A stretch of 11,718 nt of DNA from Bacteroidales bacterium (GCA_028282585.1 JANQHR010000112.1:1-11718); one strand, 5' to 3'. Shown: positions 1 to 11,718, counted from the first letter of the stretch. A program made the numbers and translations. The notes: generated by a model from the sequence alone, not told the origin.

Positions 1-60
1 AGACAAGGAATAGTCCTTTTGTGTTCGCCTAACATACTTGTTTTCACTTTTTTCTTTCAT
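1..60 (-). CDS. IS3-family transposase OrfA (HTH), N-terminal 20 aa only
   Basis: Manual translation MKEKSENKYVRRTQKDYSLS. The 'RTQKDYS' start resembles Bacteroidota IS3 OrfA proteins (recognised from memory, not searched). Confidence 0.72.
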   Translation of the reverse strand, partial: MKEKSENKYVRRTQKDYSLS

Positions 61-99
61 AACATTACTTTTTTTGTAACGCTATTTCAGGACGAGACA
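1..99 (-). mobile_element. Left end of an IS3-family-like insertion sequence (partial, continues off the window)
   Basis: Minus strand from 99 reads TGTCTCGTCCTGAAATAGCGTTACA (99->75), a TG-initiated terminal-IR-like sequence that I recognise from Bacteroidota IS3-family elements. An ATG at 60 opens an orfA-like frame. The other end and the target duplication are outside the window. Confidence 0.75.
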
Positions 100-109
100 T
101 TAAGATTAC

Positions 110-142
110 AAAAAAAGGAGGCGTAAAATACACCTCCTTTTT
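110..142 (-). terminator. Intrinsic terminator of the exbB-exbD operon (possibly bidirectional)
   Basis: Minus strand AAAAAGGAGGTGTA-TTT-TACGCCTCCTTTTTTT is a stem-loop with a T-tract, about 20 nt after the exbD stop. Confidence 0.85.
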
Positions 143-162
143 ACATGAATAGTAAACTATTT

Positions 163-636
163 TTATTCGATAGCTTCAACCTTTCTGGTAGAATAGTTGA
201 TCTTAAGGGCACTTGCTTTACGCAATTCCTGCTTAACGTCAACAATAATTCCCATTTTTGTTTCTTGATCAACTTTAAGTGAAACTGTCATTAATGGACG
301 TTCATTTTCATCCATCTTTTCTCTTTCAGCTGCAACATAATCTCTAATATCTTCTACTTTAGCGAAAGCATCGTTCAATTGAATCCTAGGCTCAGTTCCA
401 AACATTTTCTGGAAAGTCTTTTTCGGTTTACCAATATTGATATAACTTACTAATGATTTTCTTTCCAGTTTTTTTACCTCCGTTGCACCAGGTAATTTTT
501 GATTAATTTTTAATGTTTGTTCTCTCATTACAGTACTTACCATAAAGAAGAATAACAACATAAAAACGATATCTGGTAACGAAGCTGTTGAAACTTGAGG
601 CATTCCGCCTTTTCCTTTTCGTTGAAATTTAGCCAT
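163..636 (-). CDS. exbD: ExbD/TolR family biopolymer transport protein
   Basis: Single N-terminal TM with the conserved Asp (SLPDIVFMLLFFFMV) and a C-terminal periplasmic domain (VSLKVDQETKMGIIVDVKQEL). Confidence 0.9.
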   Translation of the reverse strand: MAKFQRKGKGGMPQVSTASLPDIVFMLLFFFMVSTVMREQTLKINQKLPGATEVKKLERKSLVSYINIGKPKKTFQKMFGTEPRIQLNDAFAKVEDIRDYVAAEREKMDENERPLMTVSLKVDQETKMGIIVDVKQELRKASALKINYSTRKVEAIE

Positions 637-637
637 A

Positions 638-1222
638 TTAGTTTCCTCCTCCGATGTTTTTAGGTTCTGCTTCAGAAATGATCTGAGGATAATATTTCTT
701 TATTGCATCTTGTTTGTCTTCAGGAAGATTTTCATAAAACTTCCCAAACTCTCTCATCGAAACTTCATCACGAACTTCATTGTAAGCTGCTATAAGCTCA
801 TTCTGCACCTTGATATACATTCCATATGAGGTTCCCCGGTCGTTTTGCAACGAAATTATACCTTTAGAAACCATTCTTTCACCTAAGAAATCTATTTCTC
901 TTGGTTCTTTTTCCGGTAAATTCTCTTTATTCTCAGGATTAACAATAAATTCTTTAGCAGCTTCTCTAAGATTATAAACATTCATTTGTTGACCTTCAAC
1001 TAAAAGCTGATCATTAGAATTAATAAGAACAACGTATACATTACGCTCTTTAATCTGATCATTATTATCAATCTGATCTGGATTATACGGAGGTAATTTC
1101 CTAGATAATCCGGTGTCGATATCCATTGTAGTTGCTACAAGGAAAAAGATCAATAAAAGGAAAGCTATGTCGGCCATAGAACCACCGTTAATTTCGGGAG
1201 TTTCTCTTGACTTTCTTGCCAT
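638..1222 (-). CDS. exbD: ExbD/TolR family biopolymer transport protein
   Basis: TM with the conserved Asp (SMADIAFLLLIFFLVATTM); 1-nt gap to the next exbD. Confidence 0.9.
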   Translation of the reverse strand: MARKSRETPEINGGSMADIAFLLLIFFLVATTMDIDTGLSRKLPPYNPDQIDNNDQIKERNVYVVLINSNDQLLVEGQQMNVYNLREAAKEFIVNPENKENLPEKEPREIDFLGERMVSKGIISLQNDRGTSYGMYIKVQNELIAAYNEVRDEVSMREFGKFYENLPEDKQDAIKKYYPQIISEAEPKNIGGGN

Positions 1223-1246
1223 AAACTATTTTTTAAATGTTTGAAC

Positions 1247-1267
1247 AAGCAAGGTTTAACCTTGCTT
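1247..1267. other. Intercistronic perfect inverted repeat/hairpin
   Basis: AAGCAAGGT-TTA-ACCTTGCTT between the 4TM gene and the first exbD; no long U-tract on the minus strand. Confidence 0.6.
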
Positions 1268-1272
1268 AAATT

Positions 1273-1704
1273 TTATTTAAATATCTTAGCTACTTCAGTA
1301 TATAACATTGAAACAATAGCTATTATTGCCAATACATATATTGAATGTATCATTGTTCCTGCATATTTTAATGTTGAAGGAACGTCATACTGAACTAAGT
1401 CAACATTTGTAATTCCCAATTGTTCTGTTGATGATAACATATATGCAATACCCACTACAACAACTAATGCAACGATTCCTAATAAACCTTTCTTTGCATT
1501 TTTAGGGTTTGTTATCATTTGAATAACCGGAAATATAATTGTGAATCCAACAGCAATTCCGGTTAATACATATGCCCACAAAATAAATATGTTAGTATAT
1601 GCCGGATCGCCGGTAATATCCTCACCACCTGCGTAAAATAATATTGTTAATAATGCAGATATGGCAAGTAGGACTATTAAAAGTATCCTTAATATTTTAG
1701 CCAT
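1273..1704 (-). CDS. Hypothetical inner-membrane protein (about 4 TM) in the exbB-exbD operon
   Basis: Four hydrophobic segments. Probable start ATG at 1704 (MAKILR); an alternative ATG at 1716 overlaps the exbB stop. Confidence 0.8.
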   Translation of the reverse strand: MAKILRILLIVLLAISALLTILFYAGGEDITGDPAYTNIFILWAYVLTGIAVGFTIIFPVIQMITNPKNAKKGLLGIVALVVVVGIAYMLSSTEQLGITNVDLVQYDVPSTLKYAGTMIHSIYVLAIIAIVSMLYTEVAKIFK

Positions 1705-1712
1705 AGTTATAA

Positions 1713-2543
1713 TCATTTTTTAAGGTTGTATTTTACTAATATATCAATTAAAGAAATTGAAGCATCTTCCATATCATTAACAATGCTATCGATCTTTGAA
1801 ACAATATAATTATAAAATACTTGTAAGATAACCGCAACGATCAAACCAGATACGGTAGTAATTAACGCAACTTTAATACCTCCAGCTACTAAGGTTGGAG
1901 AAATATCACCAGCTTTTTCGATAGAGTCGAATGCACCGATCATACCAATTACTGTACCCATGAAACCTAACATAGGAGCTGTAGCAATAAATAATGAAAT
2001 CCAGGTAATTCCTTTTTCTAATAGTCCCATTTGAACTGAACCGTAAGAAACAACTGATTTTTCAACAACTTCAATTCCTTCTTCCATTCTATCAAGACCT
2101 TGATAGAAAATACTAGCAACAGGCCCCTTAGTGTTACGGCAAACTTCTTTTGCAGCTTCAACACCACCTTGGTTCAACGCTTCTTCAACAGCTAATAAAA
2201 GCTTGTTTGTATTGGTTGATGCAAGGTTAAGGTAAATAATTCTTTCAATTGCAATTGCTAAACCTAAAATTAAACAAAGAAGAACAACACCCATAAATCC
2301 AGGGCCTCCTTCAATGAACTTTAGTTTAATTTGTTTATGCAAAGTCTGAGTTTCTTCAACTTCAACTTCAGCAACTTCCTCTGTAGCATCTTCTTCAACA
2401 ACTGCTGATTCTTCCATAGCTTCTTCCATAATGGTATCAGCTTGTTCAACAGCTGTTTCTTCAGCCTCTTCTTGAGCAACTGCATAGAATGACGCTCCTA
2501 AAAGCATCCCAAAAACTGCTATAAATGCAAATAATTTTTTCAT
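1713..2543 (-). CDS. exbB: MotA/TolQ/ExbB proton channel family protein
   Basis: APMLGFMGTVIGMI and GGIKVALITTVSGL motifs; signal-peptide-like N-terminus followed by a Glu-rich linker. Confidence 0.92.
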   Translation of the reverse strand: MKKLFAFIAVFGMLLGASFYAVAQEEAEETAVEQADTIMEEAMEESAVVEEDATEEVAEVEVEETQTLHKQIKLKFIEGGPGFMGVVLLCLILGLAIAIERIIYLNLASTNTNKLLLAVEEALNQGGVEAAKEVCRNTKGPVASIFYQGLDRMEEGIEVVEKSVVSYGSVQMGLLEKGITWISLFIATAPMLGFMGTVIGMIGAFDSIEKAGDISPTLVAGGIKVALITTVSGLIVAVILQVFYNYIVSKIDSIVNDMEDASISLIDILVKYNLKK

Positions 2544-2621
2544 GGTTTGTTTTCTGTTTAAATTATTAACGATTTTTATGTTTGTAAAATTATTAAAAAA
2601 TTAACTAATTAAAAATAATTG

Positions 2622-2711
2622 CGGAGAAAGAGGGATTCGAACCCTCGATACCGCTCCACACGGTATACACACTTTCCAGGCGTGCGCCTTCGACCACTCG
2701 GCCATTTCTCC
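2622..2711 (-). tRNA. tRNA-Ser(GGA)
   Basis: Acceptor stem GGAGAAA/TTTCTCC with discriminator G, anticodon arm CACGC-CTGGAAA-GTGTG, long variable arm ATACCGT/GCGGTAT, T-arm GAGGG-TTCGAAT-CCCTC. CCA is not encoded. Confidence 0.97.
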
Positions 2712-2772
2712 TTCACGTATTCTCCCCAATTTAGGGGCACAAAATACAAAAAAATAAGCAAAATCAAATAAT

Positions 2773-3807
2773 TTATTTTGTTATTTCACCACTTATGGAC
2801 TGATTTAACAGTAATTTAGTTCTACTCACTTCATATTTTTTTCCTAGCAAATGCATTAATTTCGCAACCGCAGCTTCTGTTGTAATATCATACCCACTTA
2901 TTACTCCAAGTTTTTGTAATTCATTACCTGTTTCATATTTAGTCATATCTACACTACCTGCAGAACACTGAGTTACATTTAATATTATTATATCATTATT
3001 AATTGCTTTTTTTAGTTCATTTAAAAACCACTTTTCAGTAGGAGCATTTCCTGCTCCATATGATTCCAAAACCACTGCTTTTAATTTTTCAATATTTAAT
3101 ATAGCGCTTATAACTTCTTTACTAATCCCGGGGAAAATTTTTAGGATTGCAATATTAGTATCCAAATCTGTATGAGTTACTAATTCTTTTACAGAAGTTG
3201 AATAATGAATAGCTCCATAGTTAAATTTTAGCTTTATTCCTGCATCAGCAAGATTAGGATAATTAGGAGATTCAAATGCATTAAAATGTTCTGAATTATA
3301 TTTAGTGGTTCTGTTTCCGCGCATTAATTTATTTTCGAAATAAATGCAAACTTCAGGAGCCAATGGTTGTCCATTTTTCTCAGTTGCAGCTATTTCTATA
3401 GCGGAGATAAGATTTTCTTTTCCATCTGTTCTCAAAGTGCCAATAGGCAACTGTGATCCTGTAAAAATAACAGGTTTACCAAGATTCTCCAGCATAAAAC
3501 TTAATGCCGATGCTGAAAAAGCCATCGTGTCAGTTCCATGGAGAACAACGAATCCATCGAAATTATTATAATTTTTTTTAACTATTTCAATCAGTTTAAC
3601 CCAAACCTCAGGATTTAGATTAGATGAATCAATAATGGGATCAAATGAAATCGTAGAAAGCTTAAAACCAAATCGTTTTAACTCTGGTACTTCTTTGAGT
3701 ATTTGATCAAAATCGAAAGGAGCAAGCACTCCGGTTTCAGGATCTTTTTTCATTCCGATAGTACCACCTGTATAAATAATTAATATAGATTTTGACCTAT
3801 TTCCCAT
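2773..3807 (-). CDS. ansA: Type I (cytoplasmic) L-asparaginase
   Basis: YTGGTIGM, HGTDTM and TGSQ motifs; no signal peptide. Confidence 0.93.
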   Translation of the reverse strand: MGNRSKSILIIYTGGTIGMKKDPETGVLAPFDFDQILKEVPELKRFGFKLSTISFDPIIDSSNLNPEVWVKLIEIVKKNYNNFDGFVVLHGTDTMAFSASALSFMLENLGKPVIFTGSQLPIGTLRTDGKENLISAIEIAATEKNGQPLAPEVCIYFENKLMRGNRTTKYNSEHFNAFESPNYPNLADAGIKLKFNYGAIHYSTSVKELVTHTDLDTNIAILKIFPGISKEVISAILNIEKLKAVVLESYGAGNAPTEKWFLNELKKAINNDIIILNVTQCSAGSVDMTKYETGNELQKLGVISGYDITTEAAVAKLMHLLGKKYEVSRTKLLLNQSISGEITK

Positions 3808-3812
3808 ATATA

Positions 3813-4580
3813 TTATATCCCAAAAAGTTGCTTTGCATTATCTGTTGTAATCATAGCAACTTCTTCTATTGTAATATTTTTTATTTCTGCAATTTTTTGA
3901 GCAATATAAAGTATATATGCACTTTCGTTCCTTTTTCCCCTTTTTGGAACAGGTGCCAAATATGGTGAATCTGATTCTAAAACGACATGATTAATGTCAA
4001 TATTATTCACAACTTTATCTAAACCGGAATTTTTAAATGTTACGATCCCTCCTATTCCAATCTTGAATCCCCAACTAATTATCTGCTTTGCCTGCTCATC
4101 ATTACCAGTAAAGGCATGAAAAACTCCATTCAATTCTTCATCAATTACATCATGCATTATAGTAAAAATCTCATCAAAAGATTCTCGCGCATGGATAACA
4201 ATAGGTAATTTATATTTTTTCGCTAATTCAATTTGATATCTAAAAGCCTCTTCTTGCTCTAGTTTAAATGATTTATCCCAGTAAAGATCAATACCGATTT
4301 CACCAATTGCATAAAACTTTTGTTTAGTTAACCAATTCTCAACTTTCTCTAATTCTGTTTTATAATTCTCTTTGACTGATGTTGGATGCAAACCCATCAT
4401 AGGTAAACAATAGTCAGGGTATTTAGAAACTAATTCCATCAATCGTTCAGTTGTAGAATTATCTACATTTGGAAGAAGAATCTTTCTTACTCCATCCTTC
4501 TGCGCCTTGAGTATAACTTCATCACGATCAGAATCAAATTCCGGAAGAAAAATATGACTATGTGTATCTATTAGTTGCAT
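3813..4580 (-). CDS. tatD: TatD family metal-dependent nuclease/hydrolase
   Basis: DTHSH, GLHP, GEIGID, IHAR, FHAF and ESDSPY motifs. Start moved to ATG 4580 because the track's TTG at 4598 lies inside the promoter box. Confidence 0.93.
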   Translation of the reverse strand: MQLIDTHSHIFLPEFDSDRDEVILKAQKDGVRKILLPNVDNSTTERLMELVSKYPDYCLPMMGLHPTSVKENYKTELEKVENWLTKQKFYAIGEIGIDLYWDKSFKLEQEEAFRYQIELAKKYKLPIVIHARESFDEIFTIMHDVIDEELNGVFHAFTGNDEQAKQIISWGFKIGIGGIVTFKNSGLDKVVNNIDINHVVLESDSPYLAPVPKRGKRNESAYILYIAQKIAEIKNITIEEVAMITTDNAKQLFGI

Positions 4581-4595
4581 AAAATTTAAACGCTG

Positions 4596-4603
4596 CAAAC
4601 ATA
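4596..4603 (-). promoter_or_regulatory. Bacteroidota sigma-A -7 promoter element for tatD-ansA
   Basis: TATGTTTG(C) matches TAnnTTTG, 15 nt upstream of the ATG; no well-spaced -33 box is evident. Confidence 0.6.
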
Positions 4604-4774
4604 AAAAATTTCTTAATCAAAACTTATAATCAGTATTTAATTCTGTATGTCTTAAAACATTTATTAATTAAATAGATTAACTTTTAAAAGAAAACCCTTA
4701 AACAAAAAGAGGCTAACAGAAAAGTCAATTTATCTTTTGCAGAATAAGATATTTGAAAAAAGCCCAGGGCGGGT

Positions 4775-4812
4775 AAAAATAAAAAGGGCTGTCGAAAAGT
4801 TTCAGACAGCCC
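4775..4812 (-). terminator. Intrinsic terminator of gdhA
   Basis: Minus strand GGGCTGTC-TGAAACTTTTC-GACAGCCC-TTTTTATTTTT, 24 nt after the stop codon. Confidence 0.85.
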
Positions 4813-4836
4813 CTAAGTTCTTTGCAGATTAATTAT

Positions 4837-6177
4837 TTATACTGCTCCTTGAGCAAGCATAGCCTCAGCAACTTTAACAAATCCACCGATATTTGCTCCT
4901 TTAACATAATCAATAAATCCCTCAGAGTCTTTACCGTATTTTTCACAAGTAGCATGAATATCTTTCATAATTTGATTTAATCTCTGGTCAACTTCTTCTC
5001 TTGTCCAGCTTAAACGTAAACTATTTTGCGACATTTCAAGGCCCGAAACAGCAACACCACCGGCATTAGCGGCTTTACCAGGACCATAAAGTATCTTGTT
5101 TTGTAAATATACTTCTACAGCTTCCGGAGTTGAAGGCATATTAGCTCCTTCAGAAATTACGAAACATCCGTTTGCAACAAGTGTTTTTGCTTCTTCTTCA
5201 TTAATTTCATTTTGAGTTGCCGATGGAAGAGCAACATCACACTTAATGCCCCAAGGGCGCTTACCTTCATAATATTCGCAACCGTACTTGTCTGCATATT
5301 CTTTAATACGTCCACGCTTCACATTTTTAAGTTCCATTACGTAAGCTAACTTTTCAGCATCAATTCCGTTTGGATCGTGAATAAATCCTGCAGAATCTGA
5401 TAATGTAACAACTTTACCTCCTAGTTCATTAACTTTTTCAGTAGCAAATTGAGCTACGTTGCCAGAACCAGAAACTGCAACTATTTTACCTTTGAAGCTA
5501 TCTCCGCGAGTTTTCAACATTTCCTCGGCAAAATAAACGGCTCCATAACCTGTAGCTTCAGGACGAATTAGGCTACCACCATACATGGTGCCTTTTCCTG
5601 TAAGTACTCCAACGAATTCGTTACGTATACGCTTATATTGTCCGAACATATAACCTATTTCGCGACCGCCTACTCCAATATCACCAGCGGGAACATCGGT
5701 GTTATGACCGATATGTTTACATAACTCTGTCATAAAACTTTGGCAAAAACGCATTACTTCGTTATCTGATTTTCCCTTTGGATCAAAATCAGAACCACCT
5801 TTACCTCCACCCATAGGAAGTGTAGTTAAACTATTCTTAAATACTTGTTCGAATGCTAAAAATTTAAGAATACTTAAGTTTACTGTTGGATGGAATCTTA
5901 ATCCTCCTTTGTATGGACCTATCGCACTGTTCATTTCAATACGATAACCTTTGTTAATTTGAATTTCTCCCTTATCGTCTAACCAAGGAATTCTAAAAAG
6001 TATTACTCTTTCAGGTTCAGCAATTCTATCAAGAATCTTTGCATGTTTGTACTTGGGATTTTCCTCGATATAAGGAATAAGAGATTCGGCTACTTCTTGT
6101 ACTGCCTGATGGAATTCATTTTCATTTGGATTCTTGGCAATAATTTGAGCCATAAATTGTTCTACACGTGGATCCAT
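4837..6177 (-). CDS. gdhA: Glutamate dehydrogenase, probably NADP(H)-utilising
   Basis: GPYKGGLRFHP, GGGKGG, VPAGDIGVG and RPEATGYG motifs, Rossmann GSGNVA, and the LSDS motif of E. coli-like NADP-GDH (the C. symbiosum NAD-type has SGPDG). Start set at ATG 6177 (MDPRVEQF). Confidence 0.93.
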   Translation of the reverse strand: MDPRVEQFMAQIIAKNPNENEFHQAVQEVAESLIPYIEENPKYKHAKILDRIAEPERVILFRIPWLDDKGEIQINKGYRIEMNSAIGPYKGGLRFHPTVNLSILKFLAFEQVFKNSLTTLPMGGGKGGSDFDPKGKSDNEVMRFCQSFMTELCKHIGHNTDVPAGDIGVGGREIGYMFGQYKRIRNEFVGVLTGKGTMYGGSLIRPEATGYGAVYFAEEMLKTRGDSFKGKIVAVSGSGNVAQFATEKVNELGGKVVTLSDSAGFIHDPNGIDAEKLAYVMELKNVKRGRIKEYADKYGCEYYEGKRPWGIKCDVALPSATQNEINEEEAKTLVANGCFVISEGANMPSTPEAVEVYLQNKILYGPGKAANAGGVAVSGLEMSQNSLRLSWTREEVDQRLNQIMKDIHATCEKYGKDSEGFIDYVKGANIGGFVKVAEAMLAQGAV

Positions 6178-6186
6178 AATTTTTAT

Positions 6187-6210
6187 TAGTTTTTTAGTTT
6201 GTAATTTATG
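6187..6210. repeat. 24-bp sequence, exact inverted copy of 11620-11643; lies in the gdhA leader
   Basis: + strand TAGTTTTTTAGTTTGTAATTTATG is the reverse complement of CATAAATTACAAACTAAAAAACTA at 11620-11643. Confidence 0.9.
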
Positions 6211-6222
6211 GTTTAATACTAA

Positions 6223-6230
6223 CAAACATA
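6223..6230 (-). promoter_or_regulatory. -7 promoter element for gdhA
   Basis: TATGTTTG on the minus strand matches TAnnTTTG and predicts a leader of about 40 nt. Confidence 0.55.
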
Positions 6231-6382
6231 TGTAAAAAAAAAATTAAAGAAAATAACGCAAAACACAATACACGTTTATTTGCATATGTTTTAAAACTAC
6301 CTACAAGTCTGAACATTACATTAGATGGGTATTTCGACTACCGAAATGATGCAACATGTTTAAAAACACTTCCTGATTTTTA

Positions 6383-7504
6383 TCATAGATAAACCGATGA
6401 AATCAGCTTGTATATTTTACCTGGTAAAGTCTTTACTACTCCCATAAATTCGAGGTTCAATAAAATTGGAGAAACCTTACTTGTAGGCATATTTGATTTT
6501 AAACAAATTTTATCAATTGGTATTTCATCTTCAGTTTTCAAGATATCTGCTATCAATTTCTCCTCTTCATTAAGGTTCGCAAACAAACTTCCTTGTATAT
6601 CTGTCTTTTCAGGCTGTATTGCTTCCCATCCCAGTATATACTCCAAATCATTTATTGAAGTAAGCATTGCTGCTTTATTTGATTTTATTAAATTATTACA
6701 ACCAACAGAATACTCATCGGAAACACGTCCGGGTACAGCAAACACATCCCTGTTATAAGAGTTCGCAATATCTGCAGTAACTAAAGATCCTCCTTTTACT
6801 CCAGATTCTACAACAATTGTAGCATCTGACAAACCTGCAATTATCCGATTTCTTTTTAAAAAGTTGTTTTTATCCCGAACTGACTCGCTTGGAAAATCTG
6901 TAAGTAGCATACCTTGTCCTTCAATTTCCGTTGCCAACTTTTTATGTGATGCCGGATATACAATATCCAATCCGTGTCCGAATACTGCAATGGTATCCAA
7001 ATTATTATCTAATGCAGCTCGATGCGCAACAGCATCTATTCCATATGCTAAACCACTTACTATTATAGGATTATGATTTCGAGACTTTAAATCTTCAACT
7101 AATTTTTTACAAAAGTCTTTTCCTTCCGTTGTTGCTTTTCTTGTACCAACAATACTTATAATTTTACGTGAATTTAAATTAGCATTACCTTTCGTATATA
7201 AAAGGATCGGCGCATCTTCGCAATATTTTAATCTTTCCGGATAATTTTTATCTAAATAAAAAATGACAGAAATCTCATTTTCTTTAATAAAACCTAATTC
7301 TTCTTCAGCCTTAGGTATAACGTCTGAATTCATTATCAAATCTGCCAGAGTATTTCCAATTCCCGGAATTTTAAGTAAACTGCTTCTATTTTCTAAAAAA
7401 ACTCCTTCGAAACTTCCAACGTAAGAAACTAGTTTCTTTGCAGTAATATGCCCTATTTTAGGAATTAAACTTAGGGCAATCTTATATTTAAGGCTACCAT
7501 TCAT
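6383..7504 (-). CDS. dprA: DNA-processing protein DprA (Smf)
   Basis: IVGTR, VSGLAYGID, FLKRNRIIAGLS, ESGVKGGSL and AVPG motifs; N-terminal HhH/SAM-like and C-terminal winged-helix regions. Probable ATG at 7504. Confidence 0.93.
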   Translation of the reverse strand: MNGSLKYKIALSLIPKIGHITAKKLVSYVGSFEGVFLENRSSLLKIPGIGNTLADLIMNSDVIPKAEEELGFIKENEISVIFYLDKNYPERLKYCEDAPILLYTKGNANLNSRKIISIVGTRKATTEGKDFCKKLVEDLKSRNHNPIIVSGLAYGIDAVAHRAALDNNLDTIAVFGHGLDIVYPASHKKLATEIEGQGMLLTDFPSESVRDKNNFLKRNRIIAGLSDATIVVESGVKGGSLVTADIANSYNRDVFAVPGRVSDEYSVGCNNLIKSNKAAMLTSINDLEYILGWEAIQPEKTDIQGSLFANLNEEEKLIADILKTEDEIPIDKICLKSNMPTSKVSPILLNLEFMGVVKTLPGKIYKLISSVYL

Positions 7505-7621
7505 TAATAACAAGTAATTTTTACATGAAATTAATGAAAAAATCTCAGACTAAATAAAGCCTTATTTTTTTATAGCTGTTATTTAATTATTACCTAAATA
7601 ATAAAAATACAATCACTTGCA

Positions 7622-7629
7622 CAAAGCTA
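7622..7629 (-). promoter_or_regulatory. Candidate -7 promoter element for dprA
   Basis: TAGCTTTG(TGC) on the minus strand in the divergent intergenic region. Confidence 0.5.
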
Positions 7630-7744
7630 AAAAATTCTTTCAATCCTTATTAGTTAAAATTCAAACAACTACGGCAAAAATCAAGTAAGGTTTTTTTTAT
7701 TTAAAATTTATTTTCTAATATTATACTTATTAAACCCTAAATAA

Positions 7745-9616
7745 ATGATTATGAAAAAACTTTTCTTTTTAACAACAATTCTTGTTATTACATCCCAATT
7801 AATTACGGCAAAAGCCCCGATAAAATTTGGAAAAATTGATATTGCAGAACTTGAAATGACCAGTTACGAACACGATACAAGTGCAGCAGCAGTAGTACTA
7901 TGTAAATATGGATATTTCAGTGGTAATAGTTACACTTATACAGAAATAACACGAGTAAAGATCTTAAAAAAATCAGGTGTATCATTATCTGAGTTTACTT
8001 TTCCGGGCAAAGAAAGTATGACTGTTAAAGGTATTGTTTACAATCTTGAAAATGGGGAAGTTATTAAAGAAAAACTTAAAAGAGAGTCCATTTTTAAGTT
8101 AAAAATTACTGATGATGTTTACAGAATAAGAATTGCTTTACCAAATGTAAAAGTCGGTAGTGTTTATGAAATTCAAACCACCCAAACTCTTTTACCAGTG
8201 GAATTTGCTTTTCAAAGAGAAATTCCTATTAAGTATTGTGAGCTAGTTTTAGAAAAATCGGAATATTTAGACTATCGAAAAAGATTTAAAGGTTTTGAGC
8301 TCATTAGTTCTGATGGGAATAGATTCTATGTTGAAAATATGCCTGCATTTAAATCAGAACCTTTTATTGATTCTAAAGAAAATTACTTATCTAAATTCGA
8401 ATTTGATATTCTTAACGTTAGTATTCCCGAACAACTCTATTATAAAAGTTATACAACTTCATGGGAATCAGTAAATAAACGGTTAAGGTCTTATAAGGAT
8501 TTTGGAGGTGTATTAACCACTGGTTCTCTTTATTTATCAGATATTAAAAAAGATATTGAGCAAAAATATTCTGATCCTTACGATAAATTAAAAGCTGCTT
8601 ATGAAGCAATCAAACAAGTAAAATGGAATGGGATTGAGTCTTTGTATTCATCTTCAACTCACCTGGTAGGTGTTTTTAAAGATAAAAAAGCTAATTCTGC
8701 AGAAATTAATATGATGCTATATCAGCTTCTACAAAAACTTGACATTTACTCTTTGCCCGTAGCAATAAGCACAAGGGACGAAGGGCGATTAGACCCTGTT
8801 TATCCAAGTTTAGAGAGGTTAAATTATATGTTTATATGGGCTAAAATAGACGATAAAGAATATCTCTTAGATGCAACCGAAGAAATGCTGCCTTTGGGTA
8901 TGTTACCTAAAAGGTGTTTAAATCAATCAGGCAGGTTAGTAAATAACGAAAGTGGAAAATGGATTGATCTTAGAACAGACAAAAAAGATAAGGTAAACAT
9001 AATGTATAACTTAACAATTACTGATGAATTAGAGGCTGAGGGAACTATGGAGTGCTCTAGGTTCGATTATGCTGCATTTAACTTTAGAAAAAAATACAAA
9101 GATTATGCAAGTGAAGAGGAGTATTTAACAGATCTGGAGTTTGAAAATGCAGGTTTAAGGGTAAAATCTTTTTCATTATCTGATTTAGATTCAATATACA
9201 AACCCATTAAAGAAAAGTATGAAATTAAGGTTGCAAACTTTGCACAAGAGACTGGTGATCTAATTATGATCAATCCTTTCGTCTTTAGTAAAGAAAATAA
9301 TAATCCGTTCAAATTAGAGGAAAGAAAGTACCCTATTGATTTTGCATATAAAAAGGAGAAATTAATTATATCAAATATTGTTATCCCAGAAGGGTACACA
9401 TTTAATACTATACCAAAACCAGCAAGAATCTCGCTACCCGAAAAAGCCGGATCTATTTTAATTAATTATTCAGCTAATGGCAACAGTTTAAATGTAATAT
9501 ACAAGTTCATATTAAATAAGGATAGATTTAGTATCGAAGAGTATCCATATCTAAAACAACTTTATGCATTGGTTATCGAGAAACATTCAGAGCCAGTAAT
9601 TATTAAAAAGTTGTAA
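7745..9616 (+). CDS. Exported DUF3857 / transglutaminase-like protein, degenerate catalytic site
   Basis: Signal peptide; DUF3857-like N-terminus (DTSAAAVVL, RVKILKKSG, LPNVKVGSVYE); triad-equivalent motifs ANSAEIN / LNYMF / LLDAT; C-terminal ERKYPIDF region. Start may be 7751. Confidence 0.8.
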   Translation: MIMKKLFFLTTILVITSQLITAKAPIKFGKIDIAELEMTSYEHDTSAAAVVLCKYGYFSGNSYTYTEITRVKILKKSGVSLSEFTFPGKESMTVKGIVYNLENGEVIKEKLKRESIFKLKITDDVYRIRIALPNVKVGSVYEIQTTQTLLPVEFAFQREIPIKYCELVLEKSEYLDYRKRFKGFELISSDGNRFYVENMPAFKSEPFIDSKENYLSKFEFDILNVSIPEQLYYKSYTTSWESVNKRLRSYKDFGGVLTTGSLYLSDIKKDIEQKYSDPYDKLKAAYEAIKQVKWNGIESLYSSSTHLVGVFKDKKANSAEINMMLYQLLQKLDIYSLPVAISTRDEGRLDPVYPSLERLNYMFIWAKIDDKEYLLDATEEMLPLGMLPKRCLNQSGRLVNNESGKWIDLRTDKKDKVNIMYNLTITDELEAEGTMECSRFDYAAFNFRKKYKDYASEEEYLTDLEFENAGLRVKSFSLSDLDSIYKPIKEKYEIKVANFAQETGDLIMINPFVFSKENNNPFKLEERKYPIDFAYKKEKLIISNIVIPEGYTFNTIPKPARISLPEKAGSILINYSANGNSLNVIYKFILNKDRFSIEEYPYLKQLYALVIEKHSEPVIIKKL

Positions 9617-9617
9617 A

Positions 9618-11528
9618 ATGAAATCAGGTTACTTTATATTATTTATAACATTATTTTACGGAAATATTTCTTTTGCGAAGAAAACTCCCAAGTACCCTGT
9701 TGAAGATATTCCAACTGAACTCCTTATAGCTGCAGATGCTGTAGTAAGAGAAAAAAGTACTGTGCTTGAAGTAATTTCAGAAAATAGAATAGAATGCCGT
9801 GAAAAGTACGTAATAACAATATTAAAAGAAAGTGGTAAAGAAAAAGCCTTTTTTGAAGAGTATTACGATAAACTAAGCAGTATAAGCAATATTTCAGCTA
9901 CAGTATACAACAAAGATGGAAAGAAAATAAAAGTAATTAGATCTGATGATATTATTGATTTAACTGCAGTATCTGGTTTCTCCCTATATGATGATTCAAG
10001 AAAAAAAATTATAGATCCAAAATATGCTATATATCCTTATACTGTTGAATACACATTTGACAAAAGATATAATTCTGCATATTATCTTCATGGTTGGAGT
10101 GCTTTTTTGGGTTACAATACTTCCGTCGAAAAGCTATCTTTTAAGATTATCAGTCCAGCAAGTTATAATTTTTATTATAAAGAATTTAACTTGAACGAAA
10201 AAGCTGCAGAACAACAAGTTGATCAGAAAAAAGTATTATCATGGGAATTTAAAGGATTTAAAGCATTACAGTACGAACCTTTAAGCGACTATCTGCATAA
10301 ATGGGTACCTTTAGTGAACATAGCTCCAGACAAATTTAATTTAGATGGCTATGCAGGCAGTTTAAAGTCCTGGAAAGAATTTGGCAAATTCTTTGCTAGT
10401 TTAAATAGTGGAAAGGATAATATTCCGCAAGAAACAATCGATTATGTTGGAACACTTCTTAATGAAGAAATGACCGATTATGACAAAATAGCTACTATTT
10501 ATAAATTCTCGCAAGATAAAAACAGATATGTTAGTATTCAAGAAGGTATCGGTGGACAACAACCCTTTGATGCAAAAACAGTTGATAGATTGTCATATGG
10601 TGATTGCAAAGCACTATCAAACTATGTTGTAACCCTTCTAAAGAAATTTGGTTTTGAAGCATATTATACCCTGGTATACTCAGGAGATTATATTTATACA
10701 GACAAGGAGTTTGTTAAGGATTATTTTAATCATGTAATTGCTTGTGTACCTATAAATAATAACGATACCATTTGGTTAGAATGTACCAATTCTTACTATC
10801 CCTGTGGTTACCTAGGAAGTTCTACAGATAACAGAAATGTTCTTTTAATTAAAGAAGACGGTGGGGAATTGGCTAAAACACCTTCATACTCACTTATTGA
10901 TAATAAGCAGAATTCAAATGGAGAAGCAACTATTTCTCAGGATGGTTTAGTTGATATTGATATAAATATTACTTATTGTGGAACCATGTATTCAGATCAG
11001 TATGGTTTATTGTTATTGGATGAAATAGACAAAAAGAAAAAAATTATACAATCTATTGATATACCAGATTTCAATCTTTTAAACTATAAAATTACTACTA
11101 ACAACGACCGTAAGCCATCATTAAATAAGGAATTATCTATTTCTGTTACCCACTTTGCAAGCAAAATGGGCGACCGAATGTTTTTTGATTTAAATATGAT
11201 GAACCAATCGAGTTTTACTCTTCCTTACTCGCGTAATAGAATCTCTCCAGTACTTATATTTAGACCTTTTAGTGAAGTTGATTCCATAGTTTATTCTTTG
11301 CCACAGGGATATAAGATGGAAGCTTTACCTAAACCAATTGAGTTAAAATCAGAGTTTGGTGAGTACAGTAGTCAGGCTAAATCAGAGGACAACAAGATCT
11401 ATTATGAGCGCTCAGTTAAAATTTGGAATGGGCAATATCCGAAAGAAAAATACAATGAATTTGTTGAATTTCTAGAAAAGATTGCTAAGCATGATGAAGC
11501 TAAAGCAGTATTGATAAAAGAAATCTAA
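9618..11528 (+). CDS. Exported DUF3857 / transglutaminase-like protein with an intact Cys-His-acid triad
   Basis: Signal peptide; RYVSIQEGIGG, YGDCKALSNY, FNHVI and WLECT motifs; 1-nt gap after the upstream paralogue. Confidence 0.85.
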   Translation: MKSGYFILFITLFYGNISFAKKTPKYPVEDIPTELLIAADAVVREKSTVLEVISENRIECREKYVITILKESGKEKAFFEEYYDKLSSISNISATVYNKDGKKIKVIRSDDIIDLTAVSGFSLYDDSRKKIIDPKYAIYPYTVEYTFDKRYNSAYYLHGWSAFLGYNTSVEKLSFKIISPASYNFYYKEFNLNEKAAEQQVDQKKVLSWEFKGFKALQYEPLSDYLHKWVPLVNIAPDKFNLDGYAGSLKSWKEFGKFFASLNSGKDNIPQETIDYVGTLLNEEMTDYDKIATIYKFSQDKNRYVSIQEGIGGQQPFDAKTVDRLSYGDCKALSNYVVTLLKKFGFEAYYTLVYSGDYIYTDKEFVKDYFNHVIACVPINNNDTIWLECTNSYYPCGYLGSSTDNRNVLLIKEDGGELAKTPSYSLIDNKQNSNGEATISQDGLVDIDINITYCGTMYSDQYGLLLLDEIDKKKKIIQSIDIPDFNLLNYKITTNNDRKPSLNKELSISVTHFASKMGDRMFFDLNMMNQSSFTLPYSRNRISPVLIFRPFSEVDSIVYSLPQGYKMEALPKPIELKSEFGEYSSQAKSEDNKIYYERSVKIWNGQYPKEKYNEFVEFLEKIAKHDEAKAVLIKEI

Positions 11529-11550
11529 GAATTATGAAATAACATGATAG

Positions 11551-11585
11551 GCTGTTGCATTACTAAAATTTGCAACAGCTTTTTT
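11551..11585 (+). terminator. Intrinsic terminator of the DUF3857 operon
   Basis: GCTGTTGCA-N11-TGCAACAGC-TTTTTT. Confidence 0.8.
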
Positions 11586-11589
11586 GTAT

Positions 11590-11618
11590 AAAGAAGGAGG
11601 TACTAAAAGCACCTCCTT
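11590..11618 (-). terminator. Probable terminator of the second gdh gene
   Basis: Minus strand AAGGAGGTGCT-TTT-AGTACCTCCTT-CTTT, about 40 nt after the gdh stop. Confidence 0.7.
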
Positions 11619-11619
11619 A

Positions 11620-11643
11620 CATAAATTACAAACTAAAAAACTA
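11620..11643. repeat. 24-bp inverted copy of the gdhA leader segment, in the 3' UTR of the second gdh
   Basis: CATAAATTACAAACTAAAAAACTA; on the minus-strand transcript it reads UAGUUUUUUAGUUUGUAAUUUAUG, directly before the terminator stem. Confidence 0.9.
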
Positions 11644-11659
11644 CAAGTTATATAATGAA

Positions 11660-11718
11660 TTAAATAACTCCTTGATCTAGCATTGCATTAGCTACTTTTA
11701 AGAAACCTGCAATGTTTG
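11660..11718 (-). CDS. gdh: Second glutamate dehydrogenase paralogue, C-terminal fragment
   Basis: Manual translation ...(A)NIAGFLKVANAMLDQGVI* aligns with the gdhA C-terminus ANIGGFVKVAEAMLAQGAV*. Confidence 0.88.
   Translation of the reverse strand, partial: NIAGFLKVANAMLDQGVI

Follow-up and report, generated by a model that had tools for sequence, protein, structure and literature searches.

The window analysed here is a whole stretch of 11,718 nt from a Bacteroidales bacterium (GCA_028282585.1, JANQHR010000112.1:1-11718) and is the complete contig C84 of its own genome (G000; 173 contigs, 4.9 Mb). It contains gdhA, which encodes a glutamate dehydrogenase (GDH), and the 3′ end of a second gdh gene, gdh2. 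A 24-nt element in the 5′ leader of the gdhA mRNA is exactly complementary to an element in the 3′ untranslated region (UTR) of gdh2. The features of the region are as follows (window coordinates):

4837..6177, minus strand: gdhA, a 446-amino-acid glutamate dehydrogenase (Pfam ELFV_dehydrog and ELFV_dehydrog_N), whose mRNA is the predicted target
6187..6210, minus strand: leader element, 24 nt, in the gdhA 5′ UTR, at −33 to −10 from the ATG; almost unstructured
6223..6230, minus strand: −7 promoter box of gdhA, of the Bacteroidota type TAnnTTTG, 12 nt upstream of the leader element
6383..7513, minus strand: dprA (Pfam DNA_processg_A), in most relatives the sole gene between gdh2 and gdhA
7745..11528, plus strand: two DUF3857/DUF3858 genes (Pfam), extra in comparison with most of the genus
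11594..11618, minus strand: gdh2 terminator hairpin with an 11-bp G+C-rich stem (from folding), directly after the anti-leader element
11620..11643, minus strand: anti-leader element in the gdh2 3′ UTR, whose RNA is complementary to the gdhA leader element at all 24 positions
11660..11718, minus strand: gdh2 3′ end, the last 19 codons and stop; the gene continues past the contig end

The two elements form an inverted repeat that stands out from the rest of the window. An inverted-repeat search gave 167 pairs, and among the 25 longest of these the sole perfect one has its arms at 6187–6210 and 11620–11643 (24 nt, 100% complementary, 5409 nt apart). When up to three mismatches are allowed, the 24-mer pattern matches exactly two sites in the window, which are the arms themselves, and two such matches were reproduced in 0 of 200 dinucleotide-preserving shuffles of the window. 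On the minus strand the ATG of gdhA occupies 6177–6175, and in gdh2 the stop codon (11662–11660) is followed by the 24-mer (11620–11643) and then by the hairpin (about 11594–11618). An earlier reading made from the sequence alone (the sequence-only reading) had placed both arms, their offset from the ATG, the stop and the hairpin in the same way, and all of these positions hold; its claim of 24/24 complementarity is borne out by the repeat search. It had also described pairing that stops sharply on both sides. This is true of the window copy, in which complementarity ends on both flanks of the 24-mer, whereas a further copy, behind a third gdh gene (gdh3) on contig C68 of the same genome, forms a 26-bp duplex with the gdhA leader. 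A search of the window against Rfam 15 gave a tRNA at 2622–2711 as the sole match at the gathering score, and no match at the element. In DNA sequencing run X2, a 5,475-nt contig of a related strain (6188–11640) starts and ends within the two arms, as expected if repeats break the k-mer graph; the arms may be longer in that strain.

The leader element should lie inside the gdhA 5′ UTR, because the TAnnTTTG box is located 12 nt upstream of it. This consensus is quoted for Bacteroidetes promoters, and A-rich leaders devoid of a Shine–Dalgarno (SD) sequence are described for the same group, in passages of PMC7366714. A sigma-70 promoter scan, which does not model Bacteroidota promoters, gave nothing useful at the locus, and a simple terminator scan did not call the gdh2 hairpin because its T-tract is weak. 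The gdhA leader is nearly unstructured when folded (−2.6 kcal/mol), and the gdh2 UTR is predicted to form a weak AU hairpin, whose loop exposes part of the seed, and after it the terminator hairpin. Pairing is commonly lengthened to 26–28 bp by AAACC in the leader and GGUU(U) in the UTR. The element thus has the attributes of a seed, as it lies partly in a predicted loop and can form 24–28 bp at −33 to −10 of the gdhA leader, and the position of a 3′ UTR-derived small RNA (sRNA), between the stop and the terminator, with the same order in relatives. Among 4,077 crude open reading frame starts of G000 (each taken from −60 to +21), gdhA ranks first for duplex formation with the 43-nt UTR (−30.4 kcal/mol; next −23.9; median −11.4).

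The sequence-only reading depended on the 24-mer not being a repeat found throughout the genome, and it is indeed not one: at up to three mismatches there are three copies in 4.9 Mb, all of them by gdh genes (the gdhA leader, the gdh2 3′ UTR, and the gdh3 3′ UTR on C68). Five relatives have 0–4 such sites per genome; the complete genome G008 has four, three of which are the gdhA leader, the gdh2 UTR and the gdh3 UTR. The many copies in both orientations that mark a dispersed repeat were not found, the full-length 24-mer being present three times in G000 and copies elsewhere being partial, sense and in leaders. An exact 20-mer of the element occurs at 26 loci among 185,579 species genomes. In 20 of the 26, a gdh gene is adjacent by tblastn, and a further locus (L060) also holds a gdh 3′ end, giving 21; the other five are scattered in other taxa. 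The gdh-linked loci are labelled as metagenome-assembled genomes of uncultured Bacteroidales, Marinilabiliales or Bacteroidetes.

The three gdh genes appear to be of two kinds. The gdh2 and gdh3 proteins are about 60–64% identical to GdhA. In a comparison with solved structures (PDB), GdhA is nearest to the NADP-specific GDHs 4fcc and 3sbo, and Gdh2 of G008 to the NAD-specific enzyme of Clostridium symbiosum (1bgv, 1aup), each by a small margin. This agrees with gdhA being of the NADP type and gdh2 of the NAD type, in line with the two differing GDH types that the sequence-only reading had supposed. In the usual layout of the genus, gdh2, dprA and gdhA lie on one strand and gdh3 lies elsewhere. 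The gap between gdh2 and gdhA is about 1.43–1.66 kb in 27 such tandem loci, as against 5.4 kb in the window; dprA is collinear in 27/27, and the DUF3857/DUF3858 pair, a transglutaminase-like neighbourhood, is absent from this gap in the 27 loci. The two DUF3857/DUF3858 genes are not part of the mechanism considered here. One genome, G038, is collinear with window positions 6001–11718 at 94.3% identity and has the same DUF3857/DUF3858 layout between gdh2 and dprA.

Merely the final 58 nt of gdh2 are present in the window, and its C-terminal coding sequence recurs in gdh2 and gdh3 of relatives. C84 and C68 share 99 identical nt, which are the final ones of C84 (11620–11718) and the initial ones of C68, and they part ways exactly where the 24-mer ends. 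The sequence after the element is a gdh3-type terminator in C68, as in G016, and is of the gdh2 type in C84. Because relatives show both downstream contexts, the divergence is read as an assembly fork of two paralogous 3′ ends, with gdh2 leading into C84 and gdh3 into C68. When GdhA was compared by tblastn with all 173 contigs of G000, gdhA alone was matched; the bodies of gdh2 and gdh3 are absent from the assembly, the near-identical paralogues having probably been collapsed. An assembly chimera at the contig end was also considered and is ruled out, as G038 has the same junction and both downstream contexts exist in relatives.

Complementarity between gdhA leaders and gdh 3′ UTRs is present across the genus, as a regulatory role proposed by the sequence-only reading would lead one to expect. 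The genus comprises 37 genomes, 33 of which yielded a gdhA leader together with at least one gdh2 or gdh3 3′ UTR. Strong pairing was defined as a cofolding ddG of −10 kcal/mol or lower between a UTR and the gdhA leader of its own genome. By this threshold, at least one gdh2 or gdh3 UTR pairs strongly in 28 of the 33 genomes, with energies down to −37.9 kcal/mol, whereas control pairs of the leader with the 3′ UTR of gdhA itself are all weak (23/23; −1.4 to −9.7 kcal/mol). The anatomy behind gdh2 and gdh3 is constant, namely the stop, 15–20 nt, the element and the terminator. An alignment of the tandem loci of 27 genomes, from the gdh2 stop to the gdhA ATG, gives the UTR core a mean column identity of 0.79, in comparison with 0.60 for third codon positions of dprA and 0.63–0.70 for other intergenic stretches. 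Column identity is 0.93 in the leader and likewise 0.93 in the promoter block, and the TAnnTTTG box is invariant. Exact complementarity in the window, uniqueness in the genome, position between stop and terminator, and conservation at three loci across the genus are therefore all properties of this element. No comparable element was found in six genomes that belong to other families of the order and have two gdh genes each; duplexes of −13.6 to −28.8 kcal/mol in these outgroups come from unrelated stretches, and their leader coordinates are approximate. Two variants of the region upstream of the leader were also seen: G040 has about 170 extra nt between the conserved gdhA promoter and the leader element, and G035 has a differing upstream sequence similar to that of G040; the leader element is intact in both.

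Some substitutions in the leader and the UTR are matched. G036 has a double change from C-G to U-A (leader ..UUAUAAAC.. with UTR ..GUUUAUAA..), and G-U pairs are kept after A-to-G changes in the leader of G008 and G016 and in the UTR of G040 (two UTRs) and G042. The A-run of the leader and the T-run of the UTR mostly agree in length, at 6 in the genomes closest to G000 and at 5 elsewhere. UTRs also pair better with the leader of their own genome than with those of other genomes (−28.4 vs −25.1 kcal/mol; 0/2000 label permutations as low; 40 UTRs, 30 genomes), and this is also seen in the 21 hairpin-free pairs (−27.3 vs −25.0 kcal/mol; 3/2000 permutations as low).

The explanation that accounts best for these data is that the gdh2/gdh3 3′ UTR acts in trans as an antisense element against the gdhA leader, forming a reciprocal switch between paralogues; we give this an even chance of being right. 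In the proposed mechanism, the 3′ UTRs of the NAD-type gdh2 and gdh3 genes would supply the conserved anti-leader element located between the stop and the terminator hairpin, and the active RNA would be either the full mRNA or a 3′ fragment of about 50–75 nt consisting of the seed and the terminator. Its target in trans would be the NADP-type gdhA mRNA, whose A-rich and unstructured 5′ UTR would be covered over 24–28 nt, as far as 10 nt from the AUG; on an SD-less Bacteroidota leader, such pairing should block loading of the 30S subunit. A double-strand RNase could also cleave a duplex of this length, 24–28 bp. The outcome would be low gdhA expression while gdh2 and gdh3 are strongly transcribed, that is, a reciprocal switch. 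Transcription of both elements, processing of the RNA, pairing in vivo, and the direction and sign of regulation are all predictions drawn from the sequence. As judged from the data above, the complementarity is real, genus-wide and gene-specific, and its layout is that of an antisense regulator in a 3′ UTR; the regulatory function itself is put forward as a proposal.

Several observations weigh against the antisense proposal. Five of the 33 genomes have no UTR at or below −10 kcal/mol (G011, with a 15-nt deletion in the element, and G041, G043, G046 and G048); in each of these, only a gdh2-type UTR was recovered. The element of the gdh2 UTR is absent or degenerate in G007, G012, G034 and G044, in which another gdh UTR still pairs, and the gdh3 UTR is devoid of the element in G001, G003, G009 and G047, in which the gdh2 copy is present. 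Mismatches without compensation occur in the CACAAATT clade (G001/G003/G009/G047; leader U to C), in G033 and G037, and in the gdh2 UTR of G032. Few independent, inherited events underlie the outcome of the own-versus-cross permutations, as related genomes have states in common. Across the 27 tandem loci, 72.5% of cells are paired, in comparison with 71.6% after shuffling (87/500 shuffles as high) and 35–46% in slid controls, and the covariation score of the gdh2 helix is 0.080 vs 0.077 after shuffling (171/500); two independently conserved elements account equally well for this set. The compensatory changes in relatives that the sequence-only reading had anticipated are sparse, and the evidence for covariation is mixed: the double change of G036 and the better fit of own pairs speak for it, whereas a formal test of the gdh2 helix gave a negative result. 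The 3′ half of the leader motif recurs frequently right before start codons, and conservation of the leader may stem from translation alone. An explanation by RNA pairing is called for because the complement is conserved in two 3′ UTRs, and not by the conservation of the leader itself. Also on the opposing side, partial copies of the leader motif precede other genes of G000, namely those for class I fumarase (C6), an AMP-binding ligase and a PP-binding protein (C44), and Thx (C47), and palindromes at the same site in both pairing partners hint that the motif belongs to a repeat family.

The last two points bear on an alternative in which the complementarity is the by-product of a dispersed repeat. 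According to this, a leader-like module, often carrying a palindrome similar to repetitive extragenic palindromic (REP) sequences or miniature inverted-repeat transposable elements (MITEs), was copied once in inverted orientation behind the ancestor of gdh2 and gdh3, and the two sequences would be complementary owing to shared ancestry, perhaps together with gene conversion, and would play no part in regulation. GC-rich palindromes of the type CCTGCC...GGCAGG give about 58 regex hits in G000, some of which are nested pairs of one site; examples lie at C6:76016 and on C44. In many genomes they lie inside the element, between ACAAAC and TAAAA in leaders and at the corresponding site of UTRs, as inserts of 13–45 nt with the flanks retained; the sizes of these inserts point to repeated independent insertions or excisions. 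Four genomes (G007, G012, G014 and G044) have a palindrome in the leader as well as in the gdh3 UTR; the two palindromes are alike, and the predicted duplex is thereby extended to 34–50 bp. The leader motif shared by the fumarase, ligase, PP-binding protein and Thx genes has the form AAATTACAAAC, an optional palindrome, (C)TAAAAACTA... ATG; the partial copies stand at the same position relative to the ATG as in gdhA and are usually split by a palindrome, and fumarase leaders keep the core of the motif across the genus. The recurrence of motif and palindromes, the shared internal position of the palindromes in leaders and UTRs, and the negative formal covariation test all favour origin by a repeat. 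However, the full-length element has only three copies in G000, antisense copies are seen solely behind gdh2 and gdh3 (all inspected leader-like copies are sense and stand just before an ATG), the UTR copy occupies orthologous positions in two loci genus-wide with an identity above neutral proxies, and own pairs fit better than cross pairs. Descent from a repeat with no function is rather unlikely.

The shared leader motif also allows a wider variant of the antisense proposal, in which the UTR would be a broad anti-leader regulator of gdhA, class I fumarase, the acyl-CoA ligase/ACP-like genes and Thx, and would link amino-acid catabolism with central metabolism. In support of this, leaders of these genes share motifs, the fumarase leader of G016 is the element minus a single base, and the median duplex energy with the gdh2/gdh3 UTR of the same genome is −23.3 kcal/mol for fumarase leaders and −33.0 kcal/mol for gdhA leaders, as against −15.1 kcal/mol for a control UTR (27, 27 and 20 genomes, respectively). 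However, the other leaders with the motif are absent from the 25 best of the 4,077 starts in G000, palindromes interrupt their sites, and duplex predictions for AU-rich sequences are noisy. The control UTR scores as well in some genomes (G000, G011, G017). This broader role is therefore distinctly unlikely. The same low probability attaches to a general anti-leader RNA in which palindromes at the same site serve as matched hairpins that retune or strengthen pairing in trans; if true, it would represent a modular post-transcriptional regulon, assisted by mobile elements, in a phylum that is SD-less and, to our knowledge, Hfq-less.

Whereas the antisense proposal places the function of the element in RNA, the 24 bp could instead be a DNA operator, bound at three gdh loci by a regulator responsive to nitrogen or carbon, with orientation irrelevant. 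Such an operator would agree with the location of all three full copies of G000 by gdh genes and with the strongly conserved non-coding block that adjoins the invariant gdhA promoter. The site of gdh2 and gdh3, after the stop and directly before the terminator, is an odd place for an operator, however, and the sequence is non-palindromic, is split in many genomes by inserts of 13–45 nt that keep the flanks, and bears several substitutions that are tolerated as G-U pairs. We regard the operator as improbable.

Very improbable is a role for the two arms in cis, as a long-range stem in a read-through gdh2–dprA–gdhA transcript or as inversion sites for the intervening segment: the arms do flank dprA on one strand in most of the genus, 1.4–1.6 kb apart, but the element is also present behind gdh3, which is unlinked, every UTR copy is followed by a terminator hairpin, the segment encodes no recombinase by Pfam (only DprA and the two DUF3857/3858 proteins), and the orientation is the same in 27/27 loci and in G038. 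No strand-switch joints were found in the contigs of four DNA runs (X1, 2675–11649, and X2, 6188–11640, are collinear with the window), though contigs drop rare variants. A few skip joints from about 6127/6254 to 11023/11031, with sides of only 21 nt, were not accepted as real. Also rejected was a mobile element spanning 6187–11643 with 24-bp terminal inverted repeats, as it has no transposase or recombinase and the arms flank dprA alone in most relatives.

The rest of the window lies 3′ of gdhA (1–4598), where all genes are on the minus strand and comprise a TatD-family hydrolase, an asparaginase, a MotA/ExbB protein, a 147-amino-acid open reading frame without a Pfam match and two ExbD genes. 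The asparaginase fits a context of amino-acid nitrogen. The tRNA gene in this region (2622–2711, minus strand; Rfam, 59.3 bits) has a summed contig depth of 914.9 in run X1, 1511.7 in X2 and 197.4 in X5, whereas depth elsewhere is about 13–57 (X1, X2) and 0.4–7 (X5); such a depth is expected of a sequence that many organisms have in common.

If functional, the gdh arrangement would be the first sequence-defined case in Bacteroidota of a metabolic mRNA that silences its paralogue via its 3′ UTR, and it would explain how assimilatory and catabolic GDHs avoid a futile cycle. It would also offer a clean model for an antisense block of initiation, because the site is exceptionally long, is easily mutated and lies on an SD-less leader. 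Because the arrangement is conserved across 28 genomes, the hypothesis is directly testable in a tractable Bacteroidota host.

Several known systems resemble parts of this arrangement. REP/MITE-like palindromes are short, GC-rich, dispersed in intergenic DNA and found in untranslated regions, and the GC-rich palindromes described here likewise recur inside leaders and 3′ UTRs. The difference is that the full-length 24-mer is not dispersed, and the palindromes are inserts into it and not its conserved part.

In the same phylum, Bacteroides thetaiotaomicron has 21 UTR-derived sRNA candidates, and 3′ UTR-derived sRNAs are defined there by sharing the terminator of the parental mRNA, as given in passages of PMC7366714. 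The terms "gdh" and "glutamate dehydrogenase" are absent from the main text of that paper, and its passages describe no cross-targeting of paralogues; its supplements may list gdh-associated sRNAs. A literature search on glutamate dehydrogenase, UTR, sRNA and Bacteroides found nothing related.

GlnZ, an sRNA from the glnA 3′ UTR in Enterobacteriaceae, targets SucA, according to portions of PMC9731577. It resembles the gdh element in that the 3′ UTR of a nitrogen-assimilation mRNA adjusts another enzyme at the carbon/nitrogen node, and differs from it in that SucA, as the target appears in those portions, is not a paralogue of glnA. GlnZ reportedly acts by short imperfect pairing with Hfq. We know of no Hfq in Bacteroidota.

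The closest counterpart is s-SodF of Streptomyces coelicolor, an sRNA processed from the sodF 3′ UTR that silences sodN, as described in passages of PMC3919588. The sequence-only reading was not aware of any description of such a switch, but the concept has been described, as silencing of sodN by s-SodF is of the same kind; the conceptual surprise is therefore moderate. As far as those passages go, both systems have a sequence downstream of one enzyme gene that is perfectly complementary to the 5′ leader of the alternative enzyme, up to the ribosome-binding region, and both arrangements were found by inspection of the sequence, are conserved and follow a logic of reciprocal isoenzyme expression. 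By the same source, complementarity is 19 nt in Streptomyces, in comparison with 24–28 nt here, and the iron and nickel superoxide dismutases are different enzymes, whereas the gdh genes are paralogues with proteins about 60–64% identical. The gdh system further differs in that its seed is present in two paralogous 3′ UTRs, and in that it belongs to uncultured Bacteroidales with SD-less leaders, in which it is known from sequence alone. On this comparison, the gdh pairing is best read as being of the same kind as s-SodF/sodN and would be new for Bacteroidota.

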